From an uncultured virus (IMG/VR IMGVR_UViG_3300025096_000011) (lineage: Duplodnaviria; Heunggongvirae; Uroviricota; Caudoviricetes): a stretch of 64,000 nucleotides of DNA. Positions 9,525 to 33,400 of the stretch are shown here, piece by piece. The stretch lies in the IMG/VR virus record IMGVR_UViG_3300025096_000011; one strand, 5' to 3'. The translations under genes were made by a program, and so were the position numbers. Each line of letters begins with the position of its first letter. The stretch's first letter is position 1. Under the pieces are notes generated by a model. The model worked only from the letters and a program-made list of their open reading frames with translations, ran no database searches and was not told where the DNA came from.

Positions 9525-9821
9525 GTGAGAATGGAATCAGCGAATACAATGGATCGGATGCTCTGCTTGTTTCAAGCCTGTCGTGATGCAGTTGAGTACG
9601 AAAAGAAACTGTCGAAGTGGTTAGACACCGAGGCAAAGATTAGCGTCGAGTATGAAGCATCAGACTTAGCAACTGCCCGTCTGATTGTTGATGACCGTGA
9701 GGTATGCCGCCTTACCTCCGATGATCCTGTGAGTTCGTTGGATGAGTTAATGTGTTGGGTGTGGGCCACAATGGTTCTCGGTGACTACACCAACATGAGA
9801 ACACCAACCATCGAAGCCTAA
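9525..9821 (+). CDS. hypothetical protein
   Basis: GTG 9525 or ATG 9531 after GGGAG, downstream of the promoter at 9456. Confidence 0.65.
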   Translation: MRMESANTMDRMLCLFQACRDAVEYEKKLSKWLDTEAKISVEYEASDLATARLIVDDREVCRLTSDDPVSSLDELMCWVWATMVLGDYTNMRTPTIEA

Positions 9822-11905
9822 TCGCTCTCACCCAAAGCAATGTTCGCCGCATGTCGGTGGATGCAGTAGCAGCGAGCCTGTACCCCACCCAACCTTACGG
9901 GACGTGTGCGGCTGGTGCTATTCTCCAGTCGGATAAGCCAACCACGTTCATCCCAACGCTCCAGTACCTCACCTGGATGGTGACCAACTGAGGCCAAGAA
10001 CTTGCGTAGTTCTACAGAACTTATGGCGATGTACTCCCAGCTTGGATCACCAGCCCACGCACCCAACCATCCGGCAGGGGGAATAAGGGCAGCACCATTA
10101 CTCAGCTTATCGTTGCGACCCCAGAAGCGCGCCTTGTGCGAAGCGCACCAGGTCAACGTGTCTTGTAATGCTACCAGTGGTCGGTCTGCTTCCACACCAG
10201 CTTGGATGGCCGCGTCAACAAGATAACCGAAGGGGTCACACTCTGCTTGGGGCACACCAAGTTGGTGAACGATCGCCGCCGATACCTCAAGCGCTGCGAT
10301 ATGCGATGACATTCTCCGAGTAACCGCAGTCGTAGCCATGCTCGCGTAGCGGTTCCTGGCGTCATTGAACACGGCACGAATCGCGTCATGGTGCTTGTGG
10401 TTGCCAACCAAGTAACGAACGATTGCGCGGCCGAGGTGGCCGTAGTTCTCCGCGAGGATCGCCTGTAGTTCTTCACTGGTCTGTCCTCCATGTCGAGGAT
10501 TGTTGCCAAGCGGCTTGCCCTTGAGTGAGATCACACGGGCACGGGTTCCTGCATCTTCACTGAATGATGTGGCAGAACCTTCACCACTACTAATCATAAC
10601 AGACTGCCAACTATCAGTGGCGCGTGTGCCGTCAACAGAACCACGACCACGACCTTGACCTTGGCAAAAGTCATAGATGACATCACGGACAATGCTCGGA
10701 CTCTTGGCGCGTTTGGTTTCATCGAGGATGACCGGCAGGTTGTTAAGGAATCCGCAGGTACGTTCAATCCATACCTTCGTTGAATCCCATGAGTACATCG
10801 CAGTCGGGTAAGACTCAGCCGGCCGACCCCACACGGATGCAGCGAACTTGAGCGCGGTAGTCTTACCGCCACTTGTCTCACCACTAAAGTCCACTACGAA
10901 ACCGGAGATACGTAGGATCTTGAGTAGGGGTGCCGCCGACGCAGCGTACAGCGCAATCATCATAAGAGGGCTATCAACTACAAGTTCCACACCAGTTAGC
11001 CACGTTGCGTGCTCACCTTTAGGTTGCCATCCACCAGACAGTCTCTCGAATCCGGTAGGGGGAGTAAGCGCATAGTCAGCCTTTTCTTTCTCCGCCTCGT
11101 CGGTAGCGTAGTACCCGTCAGAGAGCAGGAACCCACCATTCGGAAGCCAGCCCATTCGGTTTGCAGACTTGATTGAAGGGAACCTGTGTTGGTTCTCAGC
11201 TTCAAAGTCAGCAAGGTAAGTCACGATTTGCGCCGCGATGGTTGAGTTAATCGGTGCCTCAATACTGGAAAGTTGCACGATTCTTCCGGTGTCCATGATG
11301 GTGCGTCGGTCGAGGGTACGGCTACACCAACCACTCGGACCTCTCCACACCACCTGTCGCTTCGCTTCGCCGCTGTGTACGTCTTCTGTGCGACCCACAA
11401 TAAACATAGGAGCAGAAGCGATCCTCACGTTATCTACGGTGCCATCAAGATTGATCCCCATCTTCGACACGCCGGCAGGAGATATGGAGTAGCCACGGGG
11501 CACTTGCAGGTCTTGAAGCGTAGAGTGAGACACGACCGAAGGTGGTGGTGCTCCGCCGTCCAACACGTCAGCCAAGCTACGCGATGGTGCGTTGTCTGGT
11601 GTTACAGAATCTGCGTCACGTTTTGCCTGTTGCTCAGCTAAACGCTGTACTGCTTTACGAAGGCTACGCGCTCTACTTACTTGACCCGGTATGGATTCGA
11701 GCACAGATAGCAGACCCGATACGGTATCGGTATGGAACCGCCATCCATCTGCAAGCGCAGACATGGATTCGTGTTTGTGTATATCAGCCCAGGCTTCTGT
11801 CTTGTCGTCCTGGTCTTTCTTTTTCGCCGCATCAATCACTCTTTGTAGTAGTTGAAAGGCGTGTGGTTTCTCTGATTCTGCTTGCTCTACATCAGCGGTG
11901 GTCAT
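9818..11905 (-). CDS. DUF927-domain (Cch-like) replicative helicase/ATPase
   Basis: RMGW motif, Walker A GETSGGKTT, Walker B ILDE, GQGRGRG, ISSGE and ENYGHLG are typical of DUF927 proteins. Confidence 0.8.
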   Translation of the reverse strand: MTTADVEQAESEKPHAFQLLQRVIDAAKKKDQDDKTEAWADIHKHESMSALADGWRFHTDTVSGLLSVLESIPGQVSRARSLRKAVQRLAEQQAKRDADSVTPDNAPSRSLADVLDGGAPPPSVVSHSTLQDLQVPRGYSISPAGVSKMGINLDGTVDNVRIASAPMFIVGRTEDVHSGEAKRQVVWRGPSGWCSRTLDRRTIMDTGRIVQLSSIEAPINSTIAAQIVTYLADFEAENQHRFPSIKSANRMGWLPNGGFLLSDGYYATDEAEKEKADYALTPPTGFERLSGGWQPKGEHATWLTGVELVVDSPLMMIALYAASAAPLLKILRISGFVVDFSGETSGGKTTALKFAASVWGRPAESYPTAMYSWDSTKVWIERTCGFLNNLPVILDETKRAKSPSIVRDVIYDFCQGQGRGRGSVDGTRATDSWQSVMISSGEGSATSFSEDAGTRARVISLKGKPLGNNPRHGGQTSEELQAILAENYGHLGRAIVRYLVGNHKHHDAIRAVFNDARNRYASMATTAVTRRMSSHIAALEVSAAIVHQLGVPQAECDPFGYLVDAAIQAGVEADRPLVALQDTLTWCASHKARFWGRNDKLSNGAALIPPAGWLGAWAGDPSWEYIAISSVELRKFLASVGHHPGEVLERWDERGWLIRLENSTSRTRPVRLGGVQARCYCIHRHAANIALGESD

Positions 11906-12045: not shown

Positions 12046-12151
12046 GTATCGGGTTGGGCATAGTTGTGTCAAGGAGGTATATTTATATTGGGTCAAGTAC
12101 AGGTTATACTATCGCAGACTCTGTATTTGAGTGAAACGTTTTGGAGGCAAC

Positions 12152-12550
12152 ATGGCAGAGACAAAGAAAGCGAAGAAACCCGCAGCAAAGAAACCAGCAG
12201 CTAAGAAACCGGCCGCTAAAAAGGCAGCGCCTAAGAAGAAGTCGGTAGCAAAAAAGGCTGCACCTAAGAAGACTGCCCCGAAGAAGACTGCCCCGAAGAA
12301 AGCGCCAGCTAAAAAGGCTCCAGCCAAAGCCAAGACACCATCGTTTGACTTGAAGGTGAAGATTAAGGGTGGAGAGAGGATACTGAGGTTTGCTACGCAA
12401 GAGCAACTCGATGAGGTCACAATGATAGTGAAGCGGCGTATGTTTGACTTTGACGTTCGCATGCGCGGCTCGCGTCGTGGGTTACCTGCGATCACAGTCA
12501 ACACGCTTGACGGTGACGTTAAGTTCGTTCTCATCAGACTTGTTGAGTAG
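12152..12550 (+). CDS. histone H1-like Lys/Ala/Pro-rich DNA-binding protein
   Basis: Tandem KKPAA, KKAAP and KKTAP repeats plus a small globular C-terminus; GGAGG RBS before ATG 12152. Confidence 0.8.
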   Translation: MAETKKAKKPAAKKPAAKKPAAKKAAPKKKSVAKKAAPKKTAPKKTAPKKAPAKKAPAKAKTPSFDLKVKIKGGERILRFATQEQLDEVTMIVKRRMFDFDVRMRGSRRGLPAITVNTLDGDVKFVLIRLVE

Positions 12551-13028: not shown

Positions 13029-14993
13029 TTAGTTCATCGGAAGGACATTATCCTTCTTAATCACCTTATACTTACCTCCCTTGGTGACTGTCACCTGATT
13101 GGCCTGGAGCCCCTGCCTAATAATATCAGCGGCGGTATCCGAAGTCATACGTTGAACTTGCTTGGTTTCAAAGCCCATGCCTTCAAGGATCTGCGCTGAC
13201 CGCACGGAGACACCTGAATCTGTAGACGGTACCTCTTTCTTGACCTCAAGTTCAGTGACATCTGCGGAGTCAAACAAGTCGTCTGCGTTGATAACCGTCC
13301 AGCCACGCGGCTTCTTACGTGCGTGCTTGGTGGTGGTTGCGATAATCACCTGACCAGGGAAGTCAGCGAAGCTATCCATGACGTTGCGCAGCGTATTCGC
13401 ATCCCATGCCCGGTCAGCCGGAATGATGATGCGCGGTGCGTTACCTGTGTCTAATGATGACATAGCGATAGCAGACACAACGGCAATAGACTCAGCACCA
13501 GACAGTGCAGAGTGCAGCTTGTCACCGCGACGCAGGCCCATGCGGAATACTTCACGTCGACCATCCTTCAAGTCAATACCAAAGATCCATCCATCCGGCA
13601 GGTATGTTGTGACGAGATCAGCAAACAGTGGCGCCTGGTGCGCAAGCAACTCACCTACTGCTTTCTCGCAGGCAGACTTGAGAGACTTATATGTATCAAT
13701 CTGTAGGGACATGGCGCGCACCGTGTCCTGCATACGCGACAAGTCATTCCACCTGTTCTGGTCTGAGGCCAGTTTGACCACGTTCTTCTGGCAGCGTTCA
13801 AGCTGTTGCTGTGCTTCTTCAAAGCTAACGGATTGAGTGTCTTCACCCTCTTCTCGGCCACGACCACGCATGGACATGATCTTTTCGAGTTCACCTTTTC
13901 TCACGTTCATTGTCGCCGCAGTCTGGTCAAACTGGTTCTTCAACTCACCTGCCGGTTGCTGCACAGCTTCTTTCTCTTGCATCCAGAGGTTCTGCCAATG
14001 AGTCAGAAGTGTCTGGTTGTGCTCAAGACCATGGCCGCTGTTGCAGGCAGGGCAGTTGTGCTTCTCATTCTTGACTGACCACTCGAACAAACGACCAGCG
14101 ATCTCAGCGATACGTGCATCATCCATAAGCATCGCGTACTTACGATTGATCTCATTCAGCTTCTCGGTCAGTTGTGCTACTGCGGTGTTTGCTGTGTTGA
14201 ACTGAGTTTCAATCTCAGCATTTGTCGGTAGATTCTGTTGCTTCACAACTTCGTCGAATATACGCTGCGCTTCGCGAGCAATGTCTTCTGCTTCGGCCAG
14301 ATACTCTTCGGTCGGCTTGGCCGGGAGTTCATCGCCCACAGATTCAAGCGCAGTCTCGGCACCTTTGAGTTGCTTCGAGCAGTCACGTTGCTGCTTACCT
14401 GCGTACTCGATGGTTGTGAGTAGCTTCTCAACAGCGTTCATTGTTGAGCCGTTACTAACGCCTTGGCTTAGTTTGTCTGAGATGTCTTTGTACTTTGCAT
14501 GTAAGGTTGCGGGCATACGTGCCAGTACGTCTTCATCGCTGACACCATTGGCAGTCCATTCAAGGAACGCCTTGCGCGCAGTCTTCTCTCCACCGGACAA
14601 AGCCATTCGAACCAGTCGACTCGGCATTACTTTGCTGGCGTCAAAGGGTGTGCTGTGAAAAGGCTTCTTGACCCGCGCACCACTGCGCTCAACGGAGAAC
14701 GTAGCCTCATCCATCGAATCATCAGAGAAACTTACTGAACTATGCAGCTTGTCTTCTGGCGCAAGTGTGAGCAATAGGTTGGGGTCACGTACCCCATACC
14801 GACCCACGATGTCATCGGCCGCACCTGATACAGCCAGTTCGACTGCTTGCAGAACTGCGCTCTTTCGGCTTGTGTTACCGCCCAGGATGAGTGTCTTCTG
14901 CCCGAGATCCACGGACCACTCTTCGCCGGTAGGACTCTTTAGATTACTTGTTACGCGCTTCACATACGGAAGGCTGTTGTCTTTTGCTGCCAT
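13029..14993 (-). CDS. SMC/Rad50/SbcC-like ABC ATPase with coiled coil and zinc hook
   Basis: N-terminal TLILGGNTSRKS P-loop, long coiled coils with central CPAC, signature LSGAE, degenerate Walker B/D-loop. Confidence 0.8.
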   Translation of the reverse strand: MAAKDNSLPYVKRVTSNLKSPTGEEWSVDLGQKTLILGGNTSRKSAVLQAVELAVSGAADDIVGRYGVRDPNLLLTLAPEDKLHSSVSFSDDSMDEATFSVERSGARVKKPFHSTPFDASKVMPSRLVRMALSGGEKTARKAFLEWTANGVSDEDVLARMPATLHAKYKDISDKLSQGVSNGSTMNAVEKLLTTIEYAGKQQRDCSKQLKGAETALESVGDELPAKPTEEYLAEAEDIAREAQRIFDEVVKQQNLPTNAEIETQFNTANTAVAQLTEKLNEINRKYAMLMDDARIAEIAGRLFEWSVKNEKHNCPACNSGHGLEHNQTLLTHWQNLWMQEKEAVQQPAGELKNQFDQTAATMNVRKGELEKIMSMRGRGREEGEDTQSVSFEEAQQQLERCQKNVVKLASDQNRWNDLSRMQDTVRAMSLQIDTYKSLKSACEKAVGELLAHQAPLFADLVTTYLPDGWIFGIDLKDGRREVFRMGLRRGDKLHSALSGAESIAVVSAIAMSSLDTGNAPRIIIPADRAWDANTLRNVMDSFADFPGQVIIATTTKHARKKPRGWTVINADDLFDSADVTELEVKKEVPSTDSGVSVRSAQILEGMGFETKQVQRMTSDTAADIIRQGLQANQVTVTKGGKYKVIKKDNVLPMN

Positions 14994-15030: not shown

Positions 15031-15060
15031 AAACTACCAACGTCTTACCACGTTGTCAAG
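15031..15060 (-). promoter_or_regulatory. sigma70-like promoter for the SMC-like gene
   Basis: Minus strand TTGACA-N17-TAGTTT containing CTTGACAACGTGGTA. Confidence 0.65.
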
Positions 15061-15493
15061 TTTGTTCTTCCAACTCAAGTCTTGCCCAGTTACGGTAATC
15101 ATCTTCGTCGGTTTCGCTAAGAGACATGATTGCTCTGAATGAATCTGTGTCGGGGCACCAAACGTATGCATGTTTCTGCGCGTTGATAAAACCTTCAATG
15201 AGTTGAGCCGTGGCTTTACCCACAGTAGGCGCCTCATCTAATGCGCTGGCAGGCACTACGATACCGTGGAACAGCATTTCGCCATCGAATGTTCGTGACC
15301 GTGGGACATCACGACCCCATGCTTTCCAACCGCCCAGTGACTTCGCACGACTGTCATAGTCATCACGACCAGCCGTAACCAGAGCAGACCAACCATCTTG
15401 TGACAATGACTCAGTTAGTTTGTCGCACCAATGATTGATGTCTGCGTCGTCATCCATACGCTTATGCGCCAAGAACCAGTTTGCTGTGCTCAT
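15056..15493 (-). CDS. hypothetical protein
   Basis: 145 aa, ATGA-coupled within the replication operon. Confidence 0.75.
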   Translation of the reverse strand: MSTANWFLAHKRMDDDADINHWCDKLTESLSQDGWSALVTAGRDDYDSRAKSLGGWKAWGRDVPRSRTFDGEMLFHGIVVPASALDEAPTVGKATAQLIEGFINAQKHAYVWCPDTDSFRAIMSLSETDEDDYRNWARLELEEQT

Positions 15494-15932: not shown

Positions 15933-18752
15933 CTAAATGTCCTTTAGTGTTCTGCCCACGTCACCTTCGGCGGTCATCACGACCTCCCAACCAGGGATGC
16001 TGACTGTCATGCACTCTTCAAGTACACGACGGGCCTTCTCAATCTCAGGTGGTAGTGGGTTGTTCTTGCGTTCTTTGGGATGCGGTGGCTTCCACAACGG
16101 GTCGAAGCCATCAGGCAGCGGTATCTCTACTGCAATAGAGTCGTGGCATTGGTGAATCATGCCGGTGCCTTTGCCCGCAAACTCATGCGGAAAGGCGTCC
16201 TGTACTGCGATCTCAGCCAGCCGCATGATACTGGACTCAGCCGCAAGGATGGGGAAGTTCACCACTTCGTTCAGCTTGCCGTCGCCCAAGGGACCACTGC
16301 GCCTACCCATGACGGGTTCTTCCATCCAGCCCTGGTGTTTATACATCAACATCATACGATCCCATGACTCAGCCCACTCGGGCTCAGACTTCATCCACGC
16401 ATCGTGCATCAGTCGTACTTCTCTCAAAGTCATACCGACATAGGGCAAACGACCGTCACCTGTTTCAGTGCTGGTGATTACCTGCCAAGCTGTAGCAGGG
16501 TTAGCACCGTAGATAGACGCGTACCGCAGTGTCTTGCACACATCGCGCATGTCCTTGGCTTCGCCTCCCTCCGGTTTGTTATACAGCGAGAAGCCATCGG
16601 AACCCCAGCCAGAAGCTGTCTTGAACTTGTCCCCAAAAGTAGCGTATGCAAGTGTGTTGTGTGGGTCCTTGCCCTCTTCAAAGCACTCAAGCAAAAGCGG
16701 TATTTGCCAGTAACAAGCTGTGATTCTTAGGTGTGCTTGGTCAAGGTCAGCACCAATAAGTACGCGCCCCGGTTCAGCAGCAAAGATAGCCTTGAGCCTG
16801 CCTTGCCCCTTCCGACTGCCTTGGTTCTGTAAGTTGGGCCCAGAACTACTGAGCCTACCTACACTGGTCACATGCGCGTTCCACGTTGAGCGTACACGCC
16901 CGTCTTCATGCACCACACCTTTCTTTACATCAATGTCTCGTCGGTTGAGTGGGATGAGTGTCGTGCCCAGGATTTTATTCTTCTCGCGACGATACAGCCG
17001 CAGTTCTCGGATGAACTCGGTTTGTGATTCGTCCAGCTTACCGCTGGCCAAGTGCCCGCGAAGCACAGCATCGCCGGTACTGGGTAAGCCTGACTCAGTA
17101 TAAAAGTCTTTGGCGTCCATCTGTGGCGGGATGCTCAGACCCCACTTGCCATAGAGCAGATCCCTGATTTGCGCTGCACTGCCAGGGTTTACCTTGTCGT
17201 CTGCGTTGATAGCGGACTCGCTTATGTCTTTACCACTTACCTGCTTGATAAGGTTACGCAGCTTCTTAAACCTACGGCGCACACTCAGTTGGTACTCTGT
17301 TTCAAGGCTGGCCCGTAGCTTCTGGTCTACCCACACACCATTCTTGTGCATGTTGACGCACATATCTTGTGTCGCATGGTCTACTTCGTTGAGGTTCCAT
17401 GCACGATGGTCTTGCCATCCGGCAGGTACAATATCCTTTCGTATTGCGCGAAACGCGCCTGACTCAGTAGAGCAATCGATAAGCGGTACTGTGATCCGTG
17501 CGTTGACTACTGCGTCCACGATGTTGTACCGCAACAGTTCATCGTCATCCTCAGAGCCTGTGCTGATCTTCGTACCTTTCTCGGTAGTCTCCCAGCGTTC
17601 AACGTCAGTGAGGATGGAGCCTACGGTCTTGAGACTCTTGGGTAGGTCTGGTGCCCTGAATCGTGCATGGAACAGCGTATCTACTAACGGTGCGGGAGTA
17701 ACGCCCAAGTGATTCTCGACGACCATGCGATCGTAATACCCGGCATTGTGACCCACCCACACACGTCCATCTGTGAAGACGCGACGTAAGATGTCTTTGA
17801 TTCGCCATTCGTCTTCGGGGAGGTAGAAGTGAGCGCGCCCATCTACTGATAGCAACCCCACCCCCACAGCCCTACTGACTTGTGCGTAGGTTCCGCGTGC
17901 TGCCTTACCTCTGTAGTCAAGGTCGGGTGTAGCGATGGCGATGGTACGTAGTCCGCACTCCATGGCTTCGATGCCATCTGTCTCAACGTCATAGGCCCAA
18001 AAGGGTGCAGGTTGAGCCAACCACTGTTCCAGTTGGCATGGTGTCGGTCGCCACAGGATCTCGGGTTCTTCCCAGTTCAATCGGTCTTCGAAGTATCGAA
18101 ACGCTTTGCCGAGGTCTGATAGGAACACGCTACGCCAACCAGGGGACCGGATAATAAACGACGGGTGTAGCATCGGCATGACCTTTCGGTCAGGTTCTTC
18201 GTTCGTGACATACCATGTGTCGTCAATGCCGATGGGCCCACCACGGGTAGCATGAATACTCTGTGTTCTACCCGTCAATGCAGACGTAGCGATCTTGCCC
18301 AACGTGATGATGTTTTTGTACTTTGATACGAGGTTGAGCAATGCGGGACGGCAGCACTCTACGGGTGATGCCCACGGGTCCATACCCTTTTTGACCCGGC
18401 TCTTATTCTCTTGGTCGATACGCTTGGTCATACGTATGAAAGCGCCAGATGGTTGACCTGGAGGCTGACATAGGAAAGTGTGCGTTAGGTCTACGTCAGG
18501 ACGACGCTTACACGTAGCAGCTAAGCCTGCGTTCCATTCGTTGCCGCTGCGACCTACCAAGGGTCTGCCAAAGCGAGTCTCCTCTGTGCCCGGTGACTCT
18601 GCGACAGCAAGTACAGTTGCGCCGTCGTGAATCTCTGCGGGTACCGGAGCCCACTCATCTTCTCGAATGAATCCATTGGGTCCAAGAGGACATTCGTTAC
18701 ACCGTGCGCCTTTGCAGCGAGGGTCGAAGTCATGGACGGGATATTCAGTCAT
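15933..18752 (-). CDS. polA: family A DNA polymerase with N-terminal family-4 uracil-DNA glycosylase-like domain and 3'-5' exonuclease
   Basis: UDG4 motifs (CxxCPL, AESPG..E...GRPLVGRSG, TLGKIA, HPS); Exo I DVET, Exo II GHNAGYYD, Exo III YNIVD; GRLSSSGPNLQN; motif A DLDQAHLR, motif B KTLRYASIYG, motif C HDS. Confidence 0.95.
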   Translation of the reverse strand: MTEYPVHDFDPRCKGARCNECPLGPNGFIREDEWAPVPAEIHDGATVLAVAESPGTEETRFGRPLVGRSGNEWNAGLAATCKRRPDVDLTHTFLCQPPGQPSGAFIRMTKRIDQENKSRVKKGMDPWASPVECCRPALLNLVSKYKNIITLGKIATSALTGRTQSIHATRGGPIGIDDTWYVTNEEPDRKVMPMLHPSFIIRSPGWRSVFLSDLGKAFRYFEDRLNWEEPEILWRPTPCQLEQWLAQPAPFWAYDVETDGIEAMECGLRTIAIATPDLDYRGKAARGTYAQVSRAVGVGLLSVDGRAHFYLPEDEWRIKDILRRVFTDGRVWVGHNAGYYDRMVVENHLGVTPAPLVDTLFHARFRAPDLPKSLKTVGSILTDVERWETTEKGTKISTGSEDDDELLRYNIVDAVVNARITVPLIDCSTESGAFRAIRKDIVPAGWQDHRAWNLNEVDHATQDMCVNMHKNGVWVDQKLRASLETEYQLSVRRRFKKLRNLIKQVSGKDISESAINADDKVNPGSAAQIRDLLYGKWGLSIPPQMDAKDFYTESGLPSTGDAVLRGHLASGKLDESQTEFIRELRLYRREKNKILGTTLIPLNRRDIDVKKGVVHEDGRVRSTWNAHVTSVGRLSSSGPNLQNQGSRKGQGRLKAIFAAEPGRVLIGADLDQAHLRITACYWQIPLLLECFEEGKDPHNTLAYATFGDKFKTASGWGSDGFSLYNKPEGGEAKDMRDVCKTLRYASIYGANPATAWQVITSTETGDGRLPYVGMTLREVRLMHDAWMKSEPEWAESWDRMMLMYKHQGWMEEPVMGRRSGPLGDGKLNEVVNFPILAAESSIMRLAEIAVQDAFPHEFAGKGTGMIHQCHDSIAVEIPLPDGFDPLWKPPHPKERKNNPLPPEIEKARRVLEECMTVSIPGWEVVMTAEGDVGRTLKDI

Positions 18753-18850: not shown

Positions 18851-19453
18851 TTAGCTTACGATGCTTTGTGCAGCCGATGGCGGCGGCGGCAACGTAGCGT
18901 GTCCTGTGGGTGCTCCGTTAACGGGAGCAGCTACAGGGTTTGGTGCAGCAGTTGTAGTTACTGCGGGTGCAGCCGTGGCGGTAACAACCTTAGTACCTGC
19001 CGCGATTGCTGAATCGTACTGAGCCTTGGTCTTCCAAGAGAACTTGTTGTACGATCCTTGAACACCAGACTGTCCTGGTGTGAACTCAACGTATGCCTTG
19101 CGGCCACCGTTAAGCTGAGTCAAGAACCACTCGTCTGTGATTGCTTGAGCAGTCTCAATGTCTTGGCCTGTGTAGCCCAATGACATGAGGATACCCTTGG
19201 TCGCTGCAAGCTGACCGCGAACTTGGTTTTCCTTGAGACCGGGCAAAGGGTTGCCGTTGTCATCGAAGGGGAAGTTCATGAAGTCAAAGCACTTATAACC
19301 GTTGTCAAACGTCATGTAGAGACGACGCTTGCCAGGGCGGTTGTTTGGGTTCGCAAGTTCAACCAAGCTGACTTCGTAGTAGCCAGCGTCAGGTGCCTTT
19401 GCGCCAAGAGCAGAAATGCCGTTGAAGGCGTTACCGGGGATATTGATGGACAT
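18851..19453 (-). CDS. single-stranded DNA-binding protein-like (DUF669-like)
   Basis: PDAGYYEVSL N-terminus, Ala/Pro-rich tail, position after an AAA_24-like ATPase, own terminator. Confidence 0.55.
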   Translation of the reverse strand: MSINIPGNAFNGISALGAKAPDAGYYEVSLVELANPNNRPGKRRLYMTFDNGYKCFDFMNFPFDDNGNPLPGLKENQVRGQLAATKGILMSLGYTGQDIETAQAITDEWFLTQLNGGRKAYVEFTPGQSGVQGSYNKFSWKTKAQYDSAIAAGTKVVTATAAPAVTTTAAPNPVAAPVNGAPTGHATLPPPPSAAQSIVS

Positions 19454-19499: not shown

Positions 19500-20492
19500 T
19501 TATCGAACAGGCGGGGGCGGCGGCAGTGAAGAAGATTCACTGACACGACTCTCCGCTGAGTCGAAATCGAACAGGCCCTTTTGTTGTTGTGCACGAAGCA
19601 CTCCCCGAGCAATACCATCCTGGCAAGCCCAACGCAAGTGAACTTGCGCGTATTGGTTGTGCTTTTTCATGACCTCTGCGGCCACGTCGCGCGAACTGCG
19701 ACCTAAAATAATCTGTGATGCGACTTCTTCAGCCACCTCATCTTGCCACTCAAGACCGGGGAATCGGTCAAGTTTGTATCCACTGGCAGATGCGTTCATA
19801 ATCTCACGCAAGTTACCAGGAGTCTTCTCTGTGCAGACACCAGTACGATCACCAGTCACCCACTCTGAATCCGTTGGGTCACAGTAGTACACGCTGGGGA
19901 ACCAAGGGTCAGGGTAGGTAGGGTCCACCATACTCCGCACGTTGATGTCACACCATGACGGCAGAGTCTCTGTCTGATTGCGACTCGGTACGTCAGGACC
20001 ACCAGGACAGAACACACCGTCGTGATTAGAGCCTGGAGGCCGTTCGTGGAATGTCATGGCAAGGTGTACGCCCAGGTGACGCGAGAGTCCCGCCAGTTGG
20101 AGCAAGTGACTGTTCAACTGCTGGTACTGAAAGAACCTGTCTTTGCGACCACTACGGCCTGTAGGTGCCTCTTCTGCCCACGCCAGCATGGAAAGCTTAC
20201 AGATATGGCTGGCGTCGTCGATGATAAGTGCGCCGTAAGGCTTGAGCGTTTCGGGGTTGGCGCTCAGTTCCTCTAACATCCGAACCAACTCAGGTAGTGT
20301 CTGTGGTGGGTTTGGATGAATCGCTGGCTGGATACCAAGTTCGTTGTTTGCCACCAACGCAATCGCAGAGGGTACACCAATGAATAATCCATTGGGGAAC
20401 GCTGCAATCGCATCGCTGGTCTTTTTCTTTTTGGGTTTTCCGTAGACGCACACCATTACTGTTGGTGGTGCGTGATCTTGTCCATTGTGCAT
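19500..20492 (-). CDS. Sak4/AAA_24-like recombination ATPase
   Basis: VCVYGKPKKKKTS (degenerate Walker A), LIIDD, TFHE, LPSWCD; lies between nuclease and SSB-like genes. Confidence 0.7.
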   Translation of the reverse strand: MHNGQDHAPPTVMVCVYGKPKKKKTSDAIAAFPNGLFIGVPSAIALVANNELGIQPAIHPNPPQTLPELVRMLEELSANPETLKPYGALIIDDASHICKLSMLAWAEEAPTGRSGRKDRFFQYQQLNSHLLQLAGLSRHLGVHLAMTFHERPPGSNHDGVFCPGGPDVPSRNQTETLPSWCDINVRSMVDPTYPDPWFPSVYYCDPTDSEWVTGDRTGVCTEKTPGNLREIMNASASGYKLDRFPGLEWQDEVAEEVASQIILGRSSRDVAAEVMKKHNQYAQVHLRWACQDGIARGVLRAQQQKGLFDFDSAESRVSESSSLPPPPPVR

Positions 20493-20507
20493 GTTTGCTC
20501 CGAAGGC

Positions 20508-21515
20508 TCAGGGTTTTTTGTGTTTGGCTTCTACGCTGGACTCTCCGTAGAAACACAGCTTGATACCTGCACAGGCGCCGTAGCGACCGACGCAGGTAGT
20601 TTCGTGTTGGGCTTTTGGCCAAGCCCAATGGTCTTTCTTGTCAACGTCCAAGCGAGCAAGGTTGTGCTCCGCTTGCCACAACATCTCAGCAAAGTGCGCG
20701 TCTCTGTGAGGTGTCATGGGTACCATGGGTCGTGCGACCCGCCAAGGATCGGTTGTCTGAATGAGATTCAGTGCAACTCCACCAAAGTTATCAGGCCATA
20801 CTTGTCGGCCCATAATGCGAAAGGCAGCGAATCCGCCGTCGATTGCATATCCATCTACTGATTTGTTTGGCTCTACTCGCGCCTGGTGCTTGTGATCCCA
20901 CACGTAGACTCGACCGCTGCGGTCCTGGGTCACAAGGTCAAGCCGTCGAGTGAGTTCGATAGCGTTACCGTGATTGGGGTGACCGACACAGTTCAACGGT
21001 GTGGGGTGTATGATGCCGCCGTCGATGGCTTTAATCTTCGCAGCTTTCGGGTGGTAGCTAACGTCGTCAGGATGCACAACCCATAGGCTCCACAGTCCAT
21101 CCTTCATACCAAGTACCGCCGTGATGGGGTACTCGACTGCAACAACCTTACCGGGTGATTCAGGGTAGGTAGCGAGGTAGCGACGGAATGTTTCTTTCAT
21201 CCGAGGGATATGCTGTTCGCCGTCACCATTGACGCGCACCCACTCTTCAACAGCCTCTTCAGGGTCAAGTAGTAGTGACGCATCATCCATGTGATAGTCG
21301 TCAACAAGTACGCCACCTTGCTCGCAACCCCAAATGGCGTGCTGGTGCGCCTGCATGACATGACCCATTGACCCGCGAGTCAGTGCGTCTGCCGGGATTA
21401 GCTGTAGGTCCAGGCGGTTCTGGTACGCAAATAGCTGCGGGCACTTATAGAACGTACCGATTCGGCTCCAGCCACTACGGCTTCTACCTGCATCAATGAG
21501 TATCTTCTGCGTCAT
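20508..21515 (-). CDS. Cas4/RecB-like PD-(D/E)XK exonuclease
   Basis: WSRIGTFYKCP, GSMGH, AVE, RLDL...WDHK and three C-terminal Cys. Confidence 0.8.
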   Translation of the reverse strand: MTQKILIDAGRSRSGWSRIGTFYKCPQLFAYQNRLDLQLIPADALTRGSMGHVMQAHQHAIWGCEQGGVLVDDYHMDDASLLLDPEEAVEEWVRVNGDGEQHIPRMKETFRRYLATYPESPGKVVAVEYPITAVLGMKDGLWSLWVVHPDDVSYHPKAAKIKAIDGGIIHPTPLNCVGHPNHGNAIELTRRLDLVTQDRSGRVYVWDHKHQARVEPNKSVDGYAIDGGFAAFRIMGRQVWPDNFGGVALNLIQTTDPWRVARPMVPMTPHRDAHFAEMLWQAEHNLARLDVDKKDHWAWPKAQHETTCVGRYGACAGIKLCFYGESSVEAKHKKP

Positions 21516-23443
21516 TAGGACCCCAACTTTGAGATTATTGAGTCAATCAGTGACCCTTTGTCTTCCAGACCCAGTAGCTTATTGTCCAGGCCCTTGAGTT
21601 CGTCGGCGTGTAGAAAAGACTCAATCGGACCAAACTTGTCCGTTAATATCTCCACCACACGCTCGTCATAGGTGTTCGATGCGACGATGACCTTAAGCAA
21701 AGTGGCGCGTCCACCAAGTCGGTCGAACCGTCCCTTCCATTGCATGAAGTCACCAGGCTTCCAGGGCAGCATGGCAAAGATGGCGAGGTCTGTAGTCTGC
21801 ATCCCGTCTACACCGGTACCGATGCTCTGTCCTGTAGCGACGATGCAGCACGGTCCATCGGAGTCCCTGAACGCATCGACAATGACATCGCGCTCGCTCT
21901 CAGGTACGCCACCGTGAATCATCCATACAGGTACGTCACGTTGGGCTTCATCACCACGATTGACTTCGCGTTGGATGGTATCGGACCATGCTTCTGTCTC
22001 GCGCCTGCGAGCAGTAAACACGACAACCTTACCCCCACCCTTCAAACCTTCGAGCACTTCACCTGTAATGTACTTACGCTTACGGCTACATGCCTCGGCC
22101 AATCTTGCTTCCAGTACCTGCTCGCGTGCGGCAAAGTTAGTCTTGGCATCTTTCGCCATCGACTTGAGTGCTTGACCGAATGTTTTGTCGTCGCTCCAGC
22201 GTTCTGCCCGGTTCAACTCTGCGCTGCTTAGGTACACAACCTGCACGCGAGTAGACGGTAGGGCAGCATGTGACTCGCTGTAGGGTACTTCGTGCATCAT
22301 GAAGCTGCACCGTGCCTTGAGTTCAGGCAGGTTACTGCTGCCACCGTCTTCGAGCCCACCAAACTGACCGGGCTTGGCATCGCAATACCGACCAGCAAAA
22401 CGTGAGTAGCTATGCGAGAACCCGCCAGGAGCCAACAAGTCAAGCTGACTCCATAGTCTGCGAGGTCGCCCGTCATCCAAGGGTGTAGCAGTCAGTCCTA
22501 TACGTAGCTGTAGGCTCGGCAATCGGCTCACGTCCATGACGGCAACGGCCCTGTTTTCTCTACTGACCTTTGAGTTTGCACGCTCACTGGCAGCGGTCTT
22601 ACGCTTCTCAAACTTAACCGTCCCATCTGCTTGTGGGATAGCCGTCCAACGTTTGCGACTACCGTGGGTATGAATCTCGTCGAGGATGAGCACAGATGGG
22701 TCAAGCTGTCGCGCAATATCCATATTGTCGGCAAGCGACTCGGCACCGATGATCACCACAGGACGGACTTGTTGTGCCTTACAGTCATTGAGGTATTCCT
22801 GAATCGTGGGGTCGTCTTTCTTCATGTCCGACTTGGGGCGAACACGGTAGGGCACAAGAAAAGTGTATTCCTGCACCTGACTCCACCACACATGACGAGC
22901 CTTCGCGGGGCAAACGATGAGTATGGGTCCTCGCTGAGTCAAGCTACCCAGGATTGCGCCGAGTGTTTTGCCGCTCCCGCAACTCCAAACATCCAGCACC
23001 CAAGGACGTGAGTGAGCCCATGCGACTCCCATAAACTGATACGGTGTTGCGATTTCTATGACAGCCGGCTTGAGTTCATTTCGAGTCACGGCGCGTTTGG
23101 CGATCTCTTTGCCGCGCTCGACCATTTGTGCGCGCGATTCTTCGTCGTCCCGCCAAAAGTCAATGCCATCAATGTTTACTGACTCAGCTACGTAGCCGAG
23201 GTTCATGTGACAGAGTAGACCCTCGACCAGCCACGCAGCATGTATCGGTGCGTAGATTTCGTAGCGGTCAAAGTCTCGAACATCTCCTGACTCAACTACT
23301 TTTATCAGGCGATTGCGTCGACCGTTACCTGTTCTGCCGTACACCAAACACCCAGGCACGTCGACTTCAATGCTACTTAGAGCATGCTCATCAATACCCA
23401 CGCGCTTAGACACCACATAGATGTAGTGCGGTTGATCCCACAT
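21515..23443 (-). CDS. SNF2-like superfamily 2 helicase
   Basis: PYQ, GSGKT, IVCP, DEIH, LTATP, GTGVD, QWKGRFDRLG; ATG 23443 chosen because a promoter lies at 23468-23497. Confidence 0.85.
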   Translation of the reverse strand: MWDQPHYIYVVSKRVGIDEHALSSIEVDVPGCLVYGRTGNGRRNRLIKVVESGDVRDFDRYEIYAPIHAAWLVEGLLCHMNLGYVAESVNIDGIDFWRDDEESRAQMVERGKEIAKRAVTRNELKPAVIEIATPYQFMGVAWAHSRPWVLDVWSCGSGKTLGAILGSLTQRGPILIVCPAKARHVWWSQVQEYTFLVPYRVRPKSDMKKDDPTIQEYLNDCKAQQVRPVVIIGAESLADNMDIARQLDPSVLILDEIHTHGSRKRWTAIPQADGTVKFEKRKTAASERANSKVSRENRAVAVMDVSRLPSLQLRIGLTATPLDDGRPRRLWSQLDLLAPGGFSHSYSRFAGRYCDAKPGQFGGLEDGGSSNLPELKARCSFMMHEVPYSESHAALPSTRVQVVYLSSAELNRAERWSDDKTFGQALKSMAKDAKTNFAAREQVLEARLAEACSRKRKYITGEVLEGLKGGGKVVVFTARRRETEAWSDTIQREVNRGDEAQRDVPVWMIHGGVPESERDVIVDAFRDSDGPCCIVATGQSIGTGVDGMQTTDLAIFAMLPWKPGDFMQWKGRFDRLGGRATLLKVIVASNTYDERVVEILTDKFGPIESFLHADELKGLDNKLLGLEDKGSLIDSIISKLGS

Positions 23444-23467
23444 AGTCAGGTCCTTGTCTTGTCCCGA

Positions 23468-23534
23468 GAGATTAAGGCCGCTAAACCACCGTGTCAAGAG
23501 AAAACTTGACACGTAGGTATTTTTTGGCTAATCT
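23468..23534. promoter_or_regulatory. back-to-back divergent promoters (helicase operon and XRE regulator)
   Basis: TTGACA-N17-TAATCT on both strands (plus-strand copy at 23506-23534). Confidence 0.75.
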
Positions 23535-25433: not shown

Positions 25434-25802
25434 TTATGCCGCAAGTAGCTTGGTTATGACACGGTTAGCAGGGTTCTTCGCGGTGCTCGATGTTGTCGCG
25501 GTCGCAGTGACAAGAGCCGTTAAGGCTGTTGCGAAGCTAACCCCTTCGGAGAAAACGAAACGGCCTATAGACGCGGGCGGTACGTAAAGTACGATCGTAG
25601 GTGCTGTGTTATTCGTCGCTGATCCGGTGTCATACAGTTTTAGGAACACCGGATTATCTTGGTTCATTCGGTTGTCTACTTCGGCGCCGTAGAACGTAGC
25701 GGCGGCTCCTGTGATGTTGGTCTGCGCTGTAGCGTTACTATTTCTATCGACATAGATGCTATCGACTAATCGCGTGAATGTTGAACTGGAAACAAACGCC
25801 AT
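25434..25802 (-). CDS. small beta-rich virion protein, paralog A
   Basis: Shares NITG...DN...FLKLYD...EG..F pattern with three neighbours. Confidence 0.65.
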   Translation of the reverse strand: MAFVSSSTFTRLVDSIYVDRNSNATAQTNITGAAATFYGAEVDNRMNQDNPVFLKLYDTGSATNNTAPTIVLYVPPASIGRFVFSEGVSFATALTALVTATATTSSTAKNPANRVITKLLAA

Positions 25803-25805
25803 TGC

Positions 25806-26186
25806 TCACCCCAAAACCAGTGTGACTTTAATCTTACCCGTAGCAGTTGTGATGTTTGGCACACTGGTCGAGTTGAGTGTGCTGGACCCCGAGCACCAAA
25901 AAGACAAACTCTGATCAAAGGGTATGCCGTCAGGAAAAGTGAATGTTCTCTTACTGATTTTAGGGCAGGGTACGCTAACTCGAATCTCATCCGAGCCTAT
26001 TGTGCCCGATGTACCGTTAGAACAACGAATCCAGTTAATGTCATCACCTTCGATATTGTCGACGATGATTGACTTTAAGACGCATGGACCGCCTGATACG
26101 TTCTTATTGATCGTAGCTTTGCAGTCATCAGAGTGAACAACTCGATGCCTAAACGAACGATCAAACTCCGAAGCGAATAGTGTCAT
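25806..26186 (-). CDS. small beta-rich virion protein, paralog B
   Basis: NVSG...DN...FPDGIPF..LSFW. Confidence 0.65.
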   Translation of the reverse strand: MTLFASEFDRSFRHRVVHSDDCKATINKNVSGGPCVLKSIIVDNIEGDDINWIRCSNGTSGTIGSDEIRVSVPCPKISKRTFTFPDGIPFDQSLSFWCSGSSTLNSTSVPNITTATGKIKVTLVLG

Positions 26187-26189
26187 TCA

Positions 26190-26381
26190 TTACTTCTTGG
26201 AGATTGCAGCCATGGCTTTCTCGGCTGAGTCACCCGCAATGTACGCTAACGCCAAATACAGCCACTGATCTGACGCAAGCATGCCAGCGGAGAGTAGTCC
26301 GGTACCAAGAACCAATACAGCAAGACGGCGCCAAGAGACGCGTTTTTGGGAGCAGAAGAGCGAGTTGATAAAGTCTTTCAT
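26190..26381 (-). CDS. holin-like two-TM protein
   Basis: 63 aa; SWRRL followed by two hydrophobic helices, AYIAG and a basic C-terminus. Confidence 0.65.
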   Translation of the reverse strand: MKDFINSLFCSQKRVSWRRLAVLVLGTGLLSAGMLASDQWLYLALAYIAGDSAEKAMAAISKK

Positions 26382-26388
26382 GTAATCC

Positions 26389-26760
26389 TCAAGTTGCGAG
26401 AACGCGAACGGTGAAGAGAGAAGCAGGTTCCGTTTGCGAAGAACCGCTGGCTACGGTTGATGTACCCCAAAAGGATACACCCGCAGAATATGCGTGGCCG
26501 TCACCTACAATGTAAGAAACAGCCCTACCAAGCGGGAAGTAAAATACAAAGTCAGGTACAGTGCTGGACGATGTTGCACTGCTGTTGTCAGCAATCTTTA
26601 CGTAACTTGCAACTTGGTTCGTTGTGTTGTCACCGTACACACAGTAGATATTTCCTGATGAGTTACCCGTTATGTTAGCTTCAGCCGTAGTGTCGGCATC
26701 CGTGTCTGTGATTAGGTAGGTAGCGAGATTGTCTGCGACATCAGCCTTTGTAACAGCCAT
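26389..26760 (-). CDS. small beta-rich virion protein, paralog C
   Basis: NITG...DN...YVKIAD...DG..Y..VSFW. Confidence 0.65.
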   Translation of the reverse strand: MAVTKADVADNLATYLITDTDADTTAEANITGNSSGNIYCVYGDNTTNQVASYVKIADNSSATSSSTVPDFVFYFPLGRAVSYIVGDGHAYSAGVSFWGTSTVASGSSQTEPASLFTVRVLAT

Positions 26761-26769
26761 GATAGTCTC

Positions 26770-27156
26770 CTAAGAAGTAACGAGAGTAATGAGTACAGTG
26801 TTCGCAGGAGCCGTTGTGCCCGCTACAGCGCCGGAAGTTACGCACCACATACTAAGTTTCGTGAAGTCAATACCCTCGGGCATTGTGTACGTAACTTCAG
26901 TTGACGCAGGAACCTTGATCATTAGGTCCGCGTTTGTAGTTCCCACAGTGATGCTTGACTCGGTAAACGTCATCTTCAAAAAGACAGGGTTTCCTACCTT
27001 GTTGTCAATGTTCATCGAGTAGAGAAAGCCAGCCTCGCCGTTTGTCATATCAACGCGGGCAGTAGCTGTTCCGCTGTTCGATCCGCTCAATGCGGTATCG
27101 TGGATAATCTTGTATGGGAGAATGGAACTATCAAAGTCCGCAGTCTTAAATGCCAT
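26770..27156 (-). CDS. small beta-rich virion protein, paralog D
   Basis: GFLY...DN...VFLKM...PEGIDF..LSMW. Confidence 0.65.
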   Translation of the reverse strand: MAFKTADFDSSILPYKIIHDTALSGSNSGTATARVDMTNGEAGFLYSMNIDNKVGNPVFLKMTFTESSITVGTTNADLMIKVPASTEVTYTMPEGIDFTKLSMWCVTSGAVAGTTAPANTVLITLVTS

Positions 27157-30430: not shown

Positions 30431-33400
30431 CTACTTGGGTATAGGTGGTGTTGACGTAATCATATCAAACTTAGGTGCATCTGCCTTTGCAGACACTTGA
30501 CGTGAAGTCTCCACAACTTGAAGACCCAGGAGAACTTCGGCCCATTGCAGGAGTTCGCCCTGTATGCCCATACGCTCTTGAATCGGCGCTTTTTCCAACC
30601 GAGCCATAATATCATTGAGTTCGCCAAGAGGTGTGAGAGCGAAGAGCATAGAGCCTGTACCGCCTGACATATAGGCTCTTTCTTTCTCGATGACTTGTTC
30701 ACCCTCTGGCGCAAACTCATCTCTCACACCAGGTATGATAGTAATCGTAGGTAATGGGACACCCATGTTCTTGAGTCCGCGCAGGTCCTTAGCAAGGTCT
30801 ACATTGAGGCGTCGAGGTCTTGAGTCTCTCTCAGTAAACGCAGACGCAATCAAGTTGGGTAGTGGGGAGTCCAGTGGGTCGCCCATCATGTCCAGCGCAG
30901 AACGTATCATGGCATTTTTTATATTCGTGTCTTCATCTACGAACATTGCGCGAAGACCGATAATGGGTAAGGCGATCACTGCCGCAGCATGACGTAAACC
31001 CGCGTAGATTGTGCTGTCAGGGTACAGAATGTCCAGGTACACATCATTGAACCCGGTGACGGGATCGTTGCGAACCATGCGTAGAAACTTGCGCGTGTCT
31101 TCTGTCATCGCAGGTTTGAGACTAACACCGACCCTGTCTCTGTGAAAGTTACGTCTCGCAGACTCACCTGGCTTAGCGTTGTAGAAGTCAGAGAATGTCT
31201 CACCCGCTTCCGTCATCGGCTGAATCTGGTGCATACGTTCACGCAACTTGCCCGCCAAACTAACCATTTGACCTGCTTCACCCTTTGACTCAAGTTCCTC
31301 AACGAACCCATCAGCGTTCCCCGCGAAGTAAAGTCGGAGCGCATCACGCATGTCTCTTGGTGTATTGGCGTAACCGCCGTAACCCTGCTCAAGTATCTTC
31401 CGTTTTTCGGGGTCGATTGATTCGATTGGGCCGTAGTCTTCTTCAATAGTCTCGATGATGACTGAGCCTTCGGGGTGATTTTTCAAGTCTTCCAGCGGCC
31501 CGTATCCGTTCTCGATCATGTTCCGTAGGAAGTAATACTTGTCTTGCAGTTCAGGCGGCATCCTCTCGGCGTCAAGGCCGTAAGGGTCAGCTACACGTTC
31601 ATACAGCAACTCTGTGATTGCTTCAGCACTGGTTGTGTAAGACCGGCGCAACACACCCATTCGATACGCACCTGCGGGTGTAGCCAGTTGACGTAGGATA
31701 AGGCGGTTTGCGTTCTTTTGGAAAGCCCAGAATGGGAACAGGGATGAGACAATCATGTGTCGGTCAAACTTGCTCATCGAGCCTGCGTAGTCGAACAATC
31801 CGTCGATAACGAGTCGCGCAGCCTGTCTCGGCTCCATGCCCGTTTCCATGAGAGTCACTAAGGCGCCGATACGTTCACGCTCGGACCAAGCTTCTGCTGT
31901 CTTGGCTACATTGTCGGTAAAGAAGCCGAGTGTTTCCTTTACTCGTCGACCTGCCGCCGATCCAATACCGTCAGTATTTTTGAAAAACGCATCAGCCTCA
32001 ACACGCATACCCGTTTTGATTGAGCGTTGCAGTTCTCGGGTGTCGAAGCTGGCGAAGATACCTTCTTCAACGGCGATTCGTCGAATGTCATCGTAGTTAT
32101 AGAACCTGGCCTGCCCTGTTTTGGGGTCGACCAATCGGAATGTTCTGCTGCCATCCCTAGCAACACCCTCCAAGATCGGGTTCACTTCAATGCGGTACTT
32201 CGAGACATTAAGCATCCTTCCAACAGCGTTGGCCGCTGCGTCTCCACCGGATTGAAGGACTCTACGTAGATTCTCTGCTGTTTGAGCACCACCTACCTTG
32301 TCGATCAACCCGAGTGTGTGCGCTACGCCAGGAAGCACCATCACGTTTTGCGTGGCTACTCGAACAGTTGATGCAAGTGCGGGCCTGTATCCCGAAACCA
32401 TCGCCATCTGGCTGAAGTGGTCGACTGTATTCATCAGGAAGTAACGCTGACGCACAAAGAATCCACCACGGGTCATACGGGTCTTCATGTAGGTGTAGAT
32501 AAACTTTACAAACGAACCTACTTCTTGGAGACTCGTCATCTTTTCAGGGTCTTCTATGACTTTTGCTTTCGCCAATACTTCTGTGAGTTTTTCTCTCGCT
32601 GCTCTTGGTATGTAAAAGCCTGCTTCCATTACAGCATCATCAACAAACTCGGGACGCATCCCGTAGTTACGCAACATTTCGTGCATCTTCGGGATCATGT
32701 CAGAGTCAATCGTCTCACCATTCAACCAGCTTCTCCAAGCCTTCATCGTATCTTGGTCAATAGCGAGCCCCAACCCTGACCAAATAGTGCGCGAACGGGC
32801 GGCTTGTCCGTGGGCAGCAAGTAGAACAGACGCGCGTAAGGCACCCTCTCTACCATATATATCTTCGATGCCTTCAAACATCGCTTGGGCTCTTTCGACG
32901 CCTTTGAGGTCCGTAACTTGACCGATGTGTAATCCGGTAGCTTCCATCATCAGTTTCAAATACTGAGCCTCTTCGGGGCGCTTCTTCTGCCCCTGGTAGA
33001 AACTCTCCATAAGGTCAGCAAACATCTGATTGCCTTTGTCGCCTAATGCGTCAAAAACCTTCGACATTGCCTGTTTGTTCGATCCCACACTCATGAAAGC
33101 TTCGTAGCCTTTCTTGAATCCTTCGGGCCCATCAGTCGCCTCGGCCATGTCACCGAGGAAGTCGAGTAGTGTTTTCTTCTTACCGTCAGGCCCTTTTACC
33201 GTTGTTTTAACCTTTGCAAGAGACTGAATAGTGTTCTGCATGGTTAGCATCGACAAGCCTATAAAGTCCTCGCCCGATGAAAGAGCGTCACGACCTGCCC
33301 TGAACTTGGTCTTCACTCCACCAAGAAACTGAAACAGGCGCTCCATACCACCTTTAGAGCCTGTTTCAGACACATGCGTAATCGCGTCACCGATAGCTTG

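Follow-up and report, generated by a model that had tools for sequence, protein, structure and literature searches.

A histidine at the steric-gate position of a UDG-fused family A DNA polymerase from an uncultured tailed phage

Textbooks give Glu710 of E. coli Pol I as the sugar gate of family A polymerases, and the locus described here raises the question of what becomes of sugar selection when a histidine stands in its place. The stretch analysed (the window) comprises 64,000 nucleotides of the uncultured virus IMGVR_UViG_3300025096_000011 and represents most of a tailed-phage genome, with portal, terminase and major head protein. It encodes a PolA polymerase fused to uracil-DNA glycosylase (UDG) and exonuclease domains, with His674 at the gate position. 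An earlier note, made from the sequence alone, suggested altered sugar or base selectivity, such as ribonucleotide tolerance or a priming-related activity. The answer that we consider fairly probable is that this is a proofreading replicative polymerase whose sugar gate has been rebuilt as a His-Glu pair and is still selective. UDG-PolA fusions have already been described (PMC10201439) and, judged from sequence, it is the His gate in a full-length proofreading PolA that is the variant part of a known architecture.

Histidine at the gate and the residues that vary with it

The plus strand reads gtg at the codon of His674, which is CAC on the coding strand, and motif A (DLDQAHLR) aligns gap-free with Klenow DYSQIELR by phmmer. 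The other motifs listed earlier (KTLRYASIYG, HDS, AESPG and TH) were each found in the sequence. Sequencing error was considered and rejected, as a contig from another study's run spans 16258-17314 without a single difference and the changes that runs X3 and X8 show at 16730 and 16731 are synonymous. A run of another study that contains 0.89 of the words sampled from the gene is a marine metagenome; no RNA run was listed as containing the gene, and 20 runs with small shares were set aside when habitat was considered. A quirk of a single genome is ruled out by the presence of His in all close homologues, where it is fixed in 121/121 rows (the query and the best 120 of 478 homologues). The homologue alignment proposed in the earlier note was extended to a distant set, the best 150 representatives of 50% clusters at ~33-67% identity, in which 70 rows have His, 77 Glu, one Asp and two a gap, and His marks clades.

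Ordinary phage PolAs do not commonly carry His at this position. It was present in 0/86 controls, with Glu in 80/80 viral and 6/6 cultured-phage sequences. The viral controls, the best 80 of 551 from IMG/VR, were picked via the TGR region, which lies outside motif A; they form 37 clusters at 70% identity and represent one region of PolA space, and the six cultured-phage controls were chosen across the ranking. Eight further phage reference PolAs have Glu in seven cases and Asp in one, the PolA of Microcystis phage Mel-JY34 (L014:2974-5406), whose ADLDRADLQ is a natural E710D and whose gene adjoins a short DUF3987 helicase. No cultured relative above ~24% identity over the full protein was found among 731 records. 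No published description of a His gate in PolA was found in the texts of the papers searched; His rows could occur in the motif logos of PMC10201439, PMC13697223 and PMC11348598 or in the alignments of their supplements. The motif changes of DpoZ are unlike those of the His-gate PolA (PMC8599892).

The scaffold around the substitution is that of Klenow. An AlphaFold2 model of the 939-residue protein (pLDDT 93.1, pTM 0.91), which ends with the last palm strand, has the Klenow fold with exonuclease, thumb, palm and fingers; its top Foldseek matches are Klenow 1kfs/8oo6 (TMt 0.78-0.81), and comparison with Klenow 1d9d by VIA gave Z 29.3 and a root-mean-square deviation (rmsd) of 3.6 with 566 residues aligned. 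PF03167 matches residues 42-205 and PF00476 residues 510-878. The family A catalytic set is present (motif A and C Asp, motif B Arg/Lys/Tyr, TGR Arg and motif 6 Asn), with D669, D871, R736, K740, Y748, R633 and N832 invariant in 121/121 close rows, and the DEDYD exonuclease set is found in 61/62 His-gate and 77/77 Glu-gate rows with residues. No second DNA polymerase was recognised among the window open reading frames (ORFs) scanned, which were 51 of the 109 ORFs of at least 100 residues plus 7 entries (one repeated). On E. coli Pol I (NC_000913.3) the mapping is H674=E710, Y744=F762 and S872=E883. The steric-gate Glu and motif 6 Gln expected of family A are missing, and by its alignment the enzyme is a family variant because His674 and Leu836 stand at the gate (A2) and motif 6 positions.

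The active site is rewired around the His gate, as had been suspected from the motifs, with partner changes at 849, 852 and 666 (E. coli numbering). When 823 columns were scored, protein positions 674, 836 and 839 separated the His and Glu states fully and 631 came next at 0.97; the co-varying set is thus E710H, Q849L/I, A852E and T666V/P/I. Glu occupies 852 in 69/70 His rows (the other has a gap) and in 0/77 Glu rows, while 849 is Leu or Ile in 68/70 His rows and Gln in 75/77 Glu rows. Position 666 is Val, Pro or Ile in 65/70 His rows (Asn in 2, gap in 3) and Thr, Ser or Gly in 68/77 Glu rows. His710 and Glu852 co-occur with zero exceptions among the 147 His or Glu rows, and no intermediate between the two sets was seen; three odd rows in 166 loci were frameshift, intein or gap artefacts. 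Two features to which the earlier note had drawn attention lost their special status, since Tyr at 762 occurs in 58/70 His rows and also in 66/77 Glu rows, and Ser/Ala at 883 in 71/77 Glu rows; Ser at this motif C position is also found in SPO1, Nachito and Mel-JY34. Asp at 707 is family-wide (119/148 rows). Large insertions near the TGR motif and motif B were observed in P0113, P0092, P0114, P0116 and many representatives of 1,200-3,175 residues; some carry HNH domains (PF13392) and they are probably inteins.

By parsimony, the His gate appears to have been reached at least three times in one phage family. The trait columns were taken out before tree building. Three changes of gate state were needed on a FastTree of 142 rows (9 short or gapped rows left out), on a rooted FastTree of 187 rows and on an IQ-TREE of 50 hand-picked rows (bootstrap range 3-3), counts that do not distinguish gains from reversions. 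A single origin, with the two main His groups held as one clade, was rejected by the approximately unbiased (AU) test (p=0.012), the singleton P0258 being omitted from the tested His group, as decided after the tree was seen. Around motif A, and over most of the rest of the protein, the minor His lineages resemble the Glu-gate enzymes. Recombination was tried as their source and no tract was found by windowed profile scores, although very short tracts could escape. In the second His lineage, Tyr replaces the motif C His881 in 5/5 rows.

The same pair is present in divPolA1 of Flavobacterium phage immuto_3-5A (MW353176 gene 1, L469:1-1326), where the motifs DFDGYHLR and NYMMQSLE give His710 and Glu852. 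The gene was assigned to divPolA1 by its size and contextual fit to PMC11348598, and one sequence was checked; the words 'steric' and 'histidine' are absent from the main text of that paper. Because divPolA1 has the pair with Gln849 kept, the comparison points to His710-Glu852, rather than Leu849, as the core, shared by two unrelated subfamilies. Asp707, common to divPolA1, may be a permissive background.

The proposed rebuilt gate weighed against other readings

In the proposed mechanism the imidazole ring would lie beneath C2' of the incoming nucleotide and block a 2'-OH. Glu839 would replace the lost carboxylate, position His674 and pair with Arg633, Leu836 and Val631 would provide room, and Tyr744 would assist in excluding ribonucleoside triphosphates (rNTPs). 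Selection of deoxynucleoside triphosphates (dNTPs) would be within about an order of magnitude of that of a Glu-gate relative, and primers would be supplied by the host or by recombination (Sak4, exonuclease, single-strand binding protein (SSB) and SNF2), as in primase-less Glu-gate relatives. Glu839 is one helical turn from Leu836 and two from Asn832, and these residues (i, i+4 and i+7 of helix 827-853) probably share one face. The carboxylate seems to have shifted out of motif A and into motif 6, leaving His as the bulky group under the sugar, because the Bst equivalents of R668, E710, Q849 and D882 are close together and interact; Q797, R615, E658 and D830 of Bst are near each other, with electrostatic interaction (PMC10520511). 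In Bst F710Y the use of rCTP is almost nil (PMC10520511), and an aromatic residue at 762 aids the gate (bioRxiv 10.64898/2026.05.20.726624). The His gate of PolD discriminates ~2,300-fold, which is gone in H931A (PMC7708050), and in Pol III alpha the gate is likewise presumed to be a His, H760 (PMC8485763). The notion that His alone means an open gate is therefore hard to sustain, as His gates PolD and presumably Pol III alpha and is here always accompanied by the new Glu852.

Several points weigh against a rebuilt, selective gate. The His674-Glu839 contact is read from helix periodicity and co-occurrence, the His-gate precedents belong to other folds, and Tyr100His opens the gate of PrimPol (PMC6362072). 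A FastTree of the polymerase domain only gave 2 changes, of which the starred branches force only 1, and a purely neutral rebuild leaves the repeated origins unexplained. Furthermore, an archaeo-eukaryotic primase (AEP) was detectable in 0/12 near-complete His-gate records, against 7/8 near-complete Glu-gate records.

The gate could instead be leaky by design, the imidazole accepting or hydrogen-bonding the 2'-OH so that rNTPs are used when dNTPs are scarce or RNA primers are extended more easily, in a phage without recognised nucleotide-supply genes or in a dNTP-draining host. We regard this as unlikely. PrimPol Y100H does gain NTP use and resist dNTP depletion (PMC6362072), but the side chain retained here is bulky, not Ala or Gly, and Tyr762 tightens rNTP exclusion in Bst (PMC10520511). 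Ribonucleotide reductase, thymidylate synthase and dUTPase were not found among the window ORFs scanned; the Glu-gate loci scanned (within-locus clusters and one complete genome) are also without supply genes. The repeated origin suggests selection, yet the proofreading residues are intact and no RNase H-like gene was recognised among the same window ORFs. In a wider form, in which His710-Glu852 acts as a switch, selected repeatedly, through which a family A replicase can use ribonucleotides, we would still bet against the idea, if slightly less firmly. Were it true, many uncultured primase-less phages would copy their genomes with an enzyme making its own RNA or mixed primers, or one that goes on replicating when dNTPs are drained, and this would be the first replicative enzyme of Pol I type found in nature to have its sugar gate open by design.

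Reading of the template, not of the sugar, may be what has changed, with loss of Gln849 and Thr666 weakening minor-groove checking at the end of the primer and His/Glu852 compensating; extension past UDG-made abasic sites, lesions or modified bases would be eased. This seems to us more doubtful than a leaky gate. Q849 touches the minor groove and affects misinsertion in Klenow and Bst (PMC10520511), and Leu or Ile is found at 836 in 68/70 His rows, but divPolA1 keeps Gln849 alongside His710 and Glu852. SP15-like UDG-PolAs excise dU and also synthesise past abasic sites (PMC13697223); against this, no base-modifying or PurZ genes were recognised among the window ORFs scanned, and the main His clade conserves the UDG pocket less well, with the full E-E-F-N-H set in 9/55 rows compared with 38/76 Glu rows. 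That the polymerase is inactive or non-replicative, with His as a sign of decay, has a very small probability in our estimation. Mutants of the E710 equivalent are catalytically slower (Bst E658A, PMC10520511), but His is kept in 121/121 close rows and across 33-65% identity, the catalytic residues are invariant, the codon variants are synonymous and this is the sole polymerase recognised.

Priming requires a longer account. The earlier remark that no primase is recognisable in the window holds for the 58 ORF entries scanned. No primase family was found either in 8 ORFs missing from the window but present in G002, a 71.6 kb stand-in genome whose polymerase is 94% identical and of which ~4.5 kb is absent from the window. 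The DUF927 helicase of the window lacks a primase domain, because its N-terminal ~130 residues, which leave no room for a catalytic one, have no conserved catalytic motif; an atlas search with this N-terminus gave PriCT/HBD leads at 0.81-0.85 only, under 0.9. DUF927 occurs in 15/16 His-gate and 0/17 Glu-gate records, and a DUF5906/D5 helicase in 9/17 Glu-gate records. The N-terminus of the latter carries DxD, SGNGxH or TWSH, and D, which we take to be AEP-type motifs, and residues 58-182 of one D5-type helicase fit a PHROG primase profile. Profiles built from the Glu-gate AEP domains found only their own sources and 0/20 His-gate records. Pfam Prim-Pol is too blunt, matching 0/33 records, even those with clear AEP motifs, and the primase absences are soft because Pfam missed known AEPs.

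His gate and primase absence are thus associated among the records compared. The later-branching Glu-gate genomes G021 (complete, with terminal repeats) and G020 encode a short DUF3987 helicase, and the same tests revealed no primase in them, the scans covering 91 ORFs of G021, 17 of G020 and 37 of the His-gate G035. Because the AEP-bearing genomes branch early and these later Glu-gate genomes are without a primase, primase loss appears to precede His and not to need it. Replicative helicases have been swapped within this phage family (L213-L221, L103), the types seen being DUF927, two AEP-D5/DUF5906 types and the short DUF3987.

It is on this ground that self-priming has to be judged, in which the His-gate polymerase would make primers together with the SSB encoded next to it and the DUF927 helicase, itself devoid of a primase, as CcPol-MP does with Cch2. 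An AEP match is missing from all 20 His-gate records, the DUF927 helicase lacks a primase domain in 15/16 with the short DUF3987 helicase in 4 more, and the AEP-bearing relatives are early branches of the rooted tree, whose later part contains every His origin; the association nevertheless amounts to few independent events, Glu-gate G021 and G020 likewise have only the short helicase, and a cryptic primase is possible as Pfam missed known AEP domains. An SSB-like gene adjoins the polymerase and PolA-SSB primases are known (PMC10061031), but SSB also flanks the polymerases of AEP-bearing genomes. CcPol, which primes with dNTPs, has E710 and F762 unchanged (PMC7581432). The priming role put forward in the earlier note is therefore weakly supported, because some Glu-gate relatives are also without a primase and a known family A primase keeps its Glu, and we consider self-priming distinctly improbable.

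The UDG domain and the rest of the window

The N-terminal domain has the family 4 UDG fold (T. maritima UDG 1l9g by VIA: Z 20.4, rmsd 2.6, 176 aligned) with four putative Fe-S cysteines, Cys18, 21, 95 and 134, invariant where aligned. Glu52, Glu58 and His196 are kept, but Leu65 and His91 stand where 1ui0 and 1l9g have PFVG and TN/CN. From the roles in T. thermophilus UDG, we take these to be the sites of the stacking Phe and of the Asn of the uracil pocket. Phe occurs in only 4 of 114 close rows, in which the commonest patterns are EDLHH (32), EELHH (23, including the window protein) and EELNH (21), and His196 is substituted in some relatives; the full E-E-F-N-H set is retained by 3/5 minor-His rows, beside the counts given above for the main His clade and the Glu rows. 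The pocket-residue patterns vary among rows, and for this reason our reading is that specificity may be relaxed or shifted. The earlier suggestion of a non-catalytic domain stands as a possibility, though E58 and H196 align to E53 and H178, the catalytic residues of the phiLo domain, which is active (PMC13697223). We put the chances of weak or no glycosylase activity, with a role in DNA binding, at about even; that the domain has remained a uracil glycosylase is less likely, and that it acts on another substrate least likely.

Table 1. Features of the polymerase gene and its surroundings, with positions in the window
Feature	Position	Strand	Size	Basis or label
UDG + 3'-5' exonuclease + family A polymerase gene	15933-18752	-	939 aa	
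Family-4-like UDG domain (~aa 7-224)	18081-18734	-		structure comparison and alignments
3'-5' exonuclease domain; catalytic D255, E257, D341, Y409 and D413 all present	17463-18071	-		alignment
Polymerase domain: thumb, palm, fingers	15936-17462	-		alignment, Foldseek, VIA
Val631 = E. coli Thr666; TGR motif becomes VGR	16860-16862	-		
His674, the steric-gate residue equivalent to E. coli Glu710; within the first turn of helix 673-681	16731-16733	-		
Tyr744 = E. coli F762, T7-type; independent of His	16521-16523	-		
Leu836 = E. coli Gln849; minor-groove contact lost	16245-16247	-		
Glu839 = E. coli Ala852, added carboxylate; helix 827-853	16236-16238	-		
Motif C His870-Asp871-Ser872, family-wide	16137-16145	-		
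Probable SSB, directly upstream of polymerase	18851-19453	-	200 aa	
Sak4-like annealing ATPase, PD-(D/E)XK exonuclease and SNF2 helicase; shared replication-recombination module	19500-23512	-		
Conserved protein, downstream of polymerase	15056-15493	-	145 aa	
Coiled-coil ATPase, downstream of polymerase	13029-14993	-	654 aa	
DUF927 + Cch-HTH helicase	9818-11905	-	695 aa	PHROG label 'primase/helicase'

The SSB-like gene is found in 160/167 loci of both gate types. Its model (pLDDT 86) has a beta-barrel core and a low-confidence tail, and Foldseek gave a weak fold match to PrgE 8s4s (E 4e-4, TMt 0.61), presumably an OB fold. The 145-residue protein has invariant 'GRDDY...GGW..W' and 'VG(K/R)ATA' motifs, is kept in His-gate genomes and occurs as a fusion in Glu-gate G020; searches of Pfam, PHROG and the atlas gave it no name, all atlas leads being under 0.9, and judged by eye it may be Rossmann-like. 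Between the coiled-coil ATPase and the helicase, a histone H1-like Lys/Ala/Pro-rich protein is encoded at 12131-12550 (+), with a weak HC2 match. Elsewhere in the window there are four tandem paralogous ORFs of 122-128 residues at 25434-27156 (-) with no family match, and a 2,685-residue protein at 30431-38488 (-) that has an M23 peptidase at its N-terminus and a stretch resembling GNAT at ~1018-1082; it probably belongs to the interior of the virion. A tandem DUF2589 gene pair was observed in His-gate phages (G002 L021:11589-12713; L138), and RelA/SpoT-domain, ice-binding-like and HD 5'-deoxynucleotidase-like proteins in Glu-gate G021 (L225:4039-5169, L222:4297-5451 and L223:8204-8833, respectively).

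A host search of genome contigs returned at least 120 matches, with one true match among the 80 loci examined. A contig in a Myxococcaceae metagenome-assembled genome bin (L286:6758-10795) carries a close His-gate polymerase, 65% identical over the C-terminal part and with a ~340-residue insertion, which is a weak hint of a myxobacterial host.

A natural full-length proofreading PolA with a His gate, always together with Glu852, represents a second stable design of the family A active site. His- and Glu-gate sister enzymes (the P0179 group and P0265) differ at few active-site positions and thus offer a clean experiment, and the divPolA1 phage, which has a cultured host, is a ready test case. 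If selectivity is kept, these enzymes show how a gate can be rebuilt; if it is relaxed, they would point to a novel route to priming, or to survival when dNTPs run short, and to a natural scaffold for the synthesis of 2'-modified nucleotides.

Comparison with known systems

With Klenow, Bst and T7 gp5 the window enzyme has in common the fold and D705, R668, K758, Y766, N845, H881 and D882, its Tyr762 being of the T7 type. Relative to E. coli Pol I, at ~20% identity, it has E710H, Q849L, A852E, T666V, S707D, N761R and E883S. PolD (H931) and Pol III alpha (H760) are replicases that also have a His where the sugar is selected; their folds are unrelated, and the likeness is one of analogy, not homology.

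The order of UDG, exonuclease and PolA is that of the SP15-like UDG-PolAs (phiLo and YerA41; PDB 9qhs and 9qlh; PMC13697223) and SPO1 gp31, which also keep the UDG catalytic Glu and His. Unlike the window enzyme, these retain Glu710 and Gln849, Phe762 and an intact F/N uracil pocket and have large inserts; identity to the SP15-like enzymes is ~17% by structure and ~24% in the UDG part, and the whole-chain match to 9qhs has an rmsd of 14.2. The three large SP15-like insertions (Insert 1, Insert 2 and CTD; ~1,200-1,300 residues) are missing from the 939-residue protein. Several members of the SP15-like/SPO1 group have T-modified genomes, and no T-modification genes were recognised among the window ORFs scanned or the 8 extra ORFs of G002, where many ORFs are without a family and the window is incomplete. 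The N4-like UDG-PolAs of cluster 17 (Czernecki et al. 2023, PMC10201439) are fusions of 800-900 residues whose UDG may be a processivity module without catalytic function. They have Phe at B3 and have lost the UDG catalytic residues, whereas the window enzyme has Tyr744, the His gate, E52/E58/H196 and the four Cys and falls outside this cluster; two Schitoviridae N4-like PolAs keep Glu710.

CcPol-MP of SCCmec (PMC7581432, PMC10061031) is likewise a family A polymerase encoded beside an SSB-like gene and a helicase without a primase domain, and both neighbours are found here, the OB-fold SSB by a weak fold match. Most of the exonuclease is missing from CcPol, which keeps E710 and F762; in place of its truncated, SSB-binding exonuclease region, the full-length window enzyme has a complete exonuclease with the catalytic set. 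Finally, divPolA1 shares His710, Asp707 and Glu852 with the window enzyme, and shares the Tyr at His881 with the second His lineage of the UDG-PolA family. It differs in retaining Gln849 and Thr666, in its length of 441 residues with a truncated thumb, dead exonuclease, no UDG and Phe762, and in being accessory to another replicase (Yutin et al. 2024, PMC11348598); the window enzyme is neither short, thumb-truncated nor exonuclease-dead, nor is it a second polymerase.

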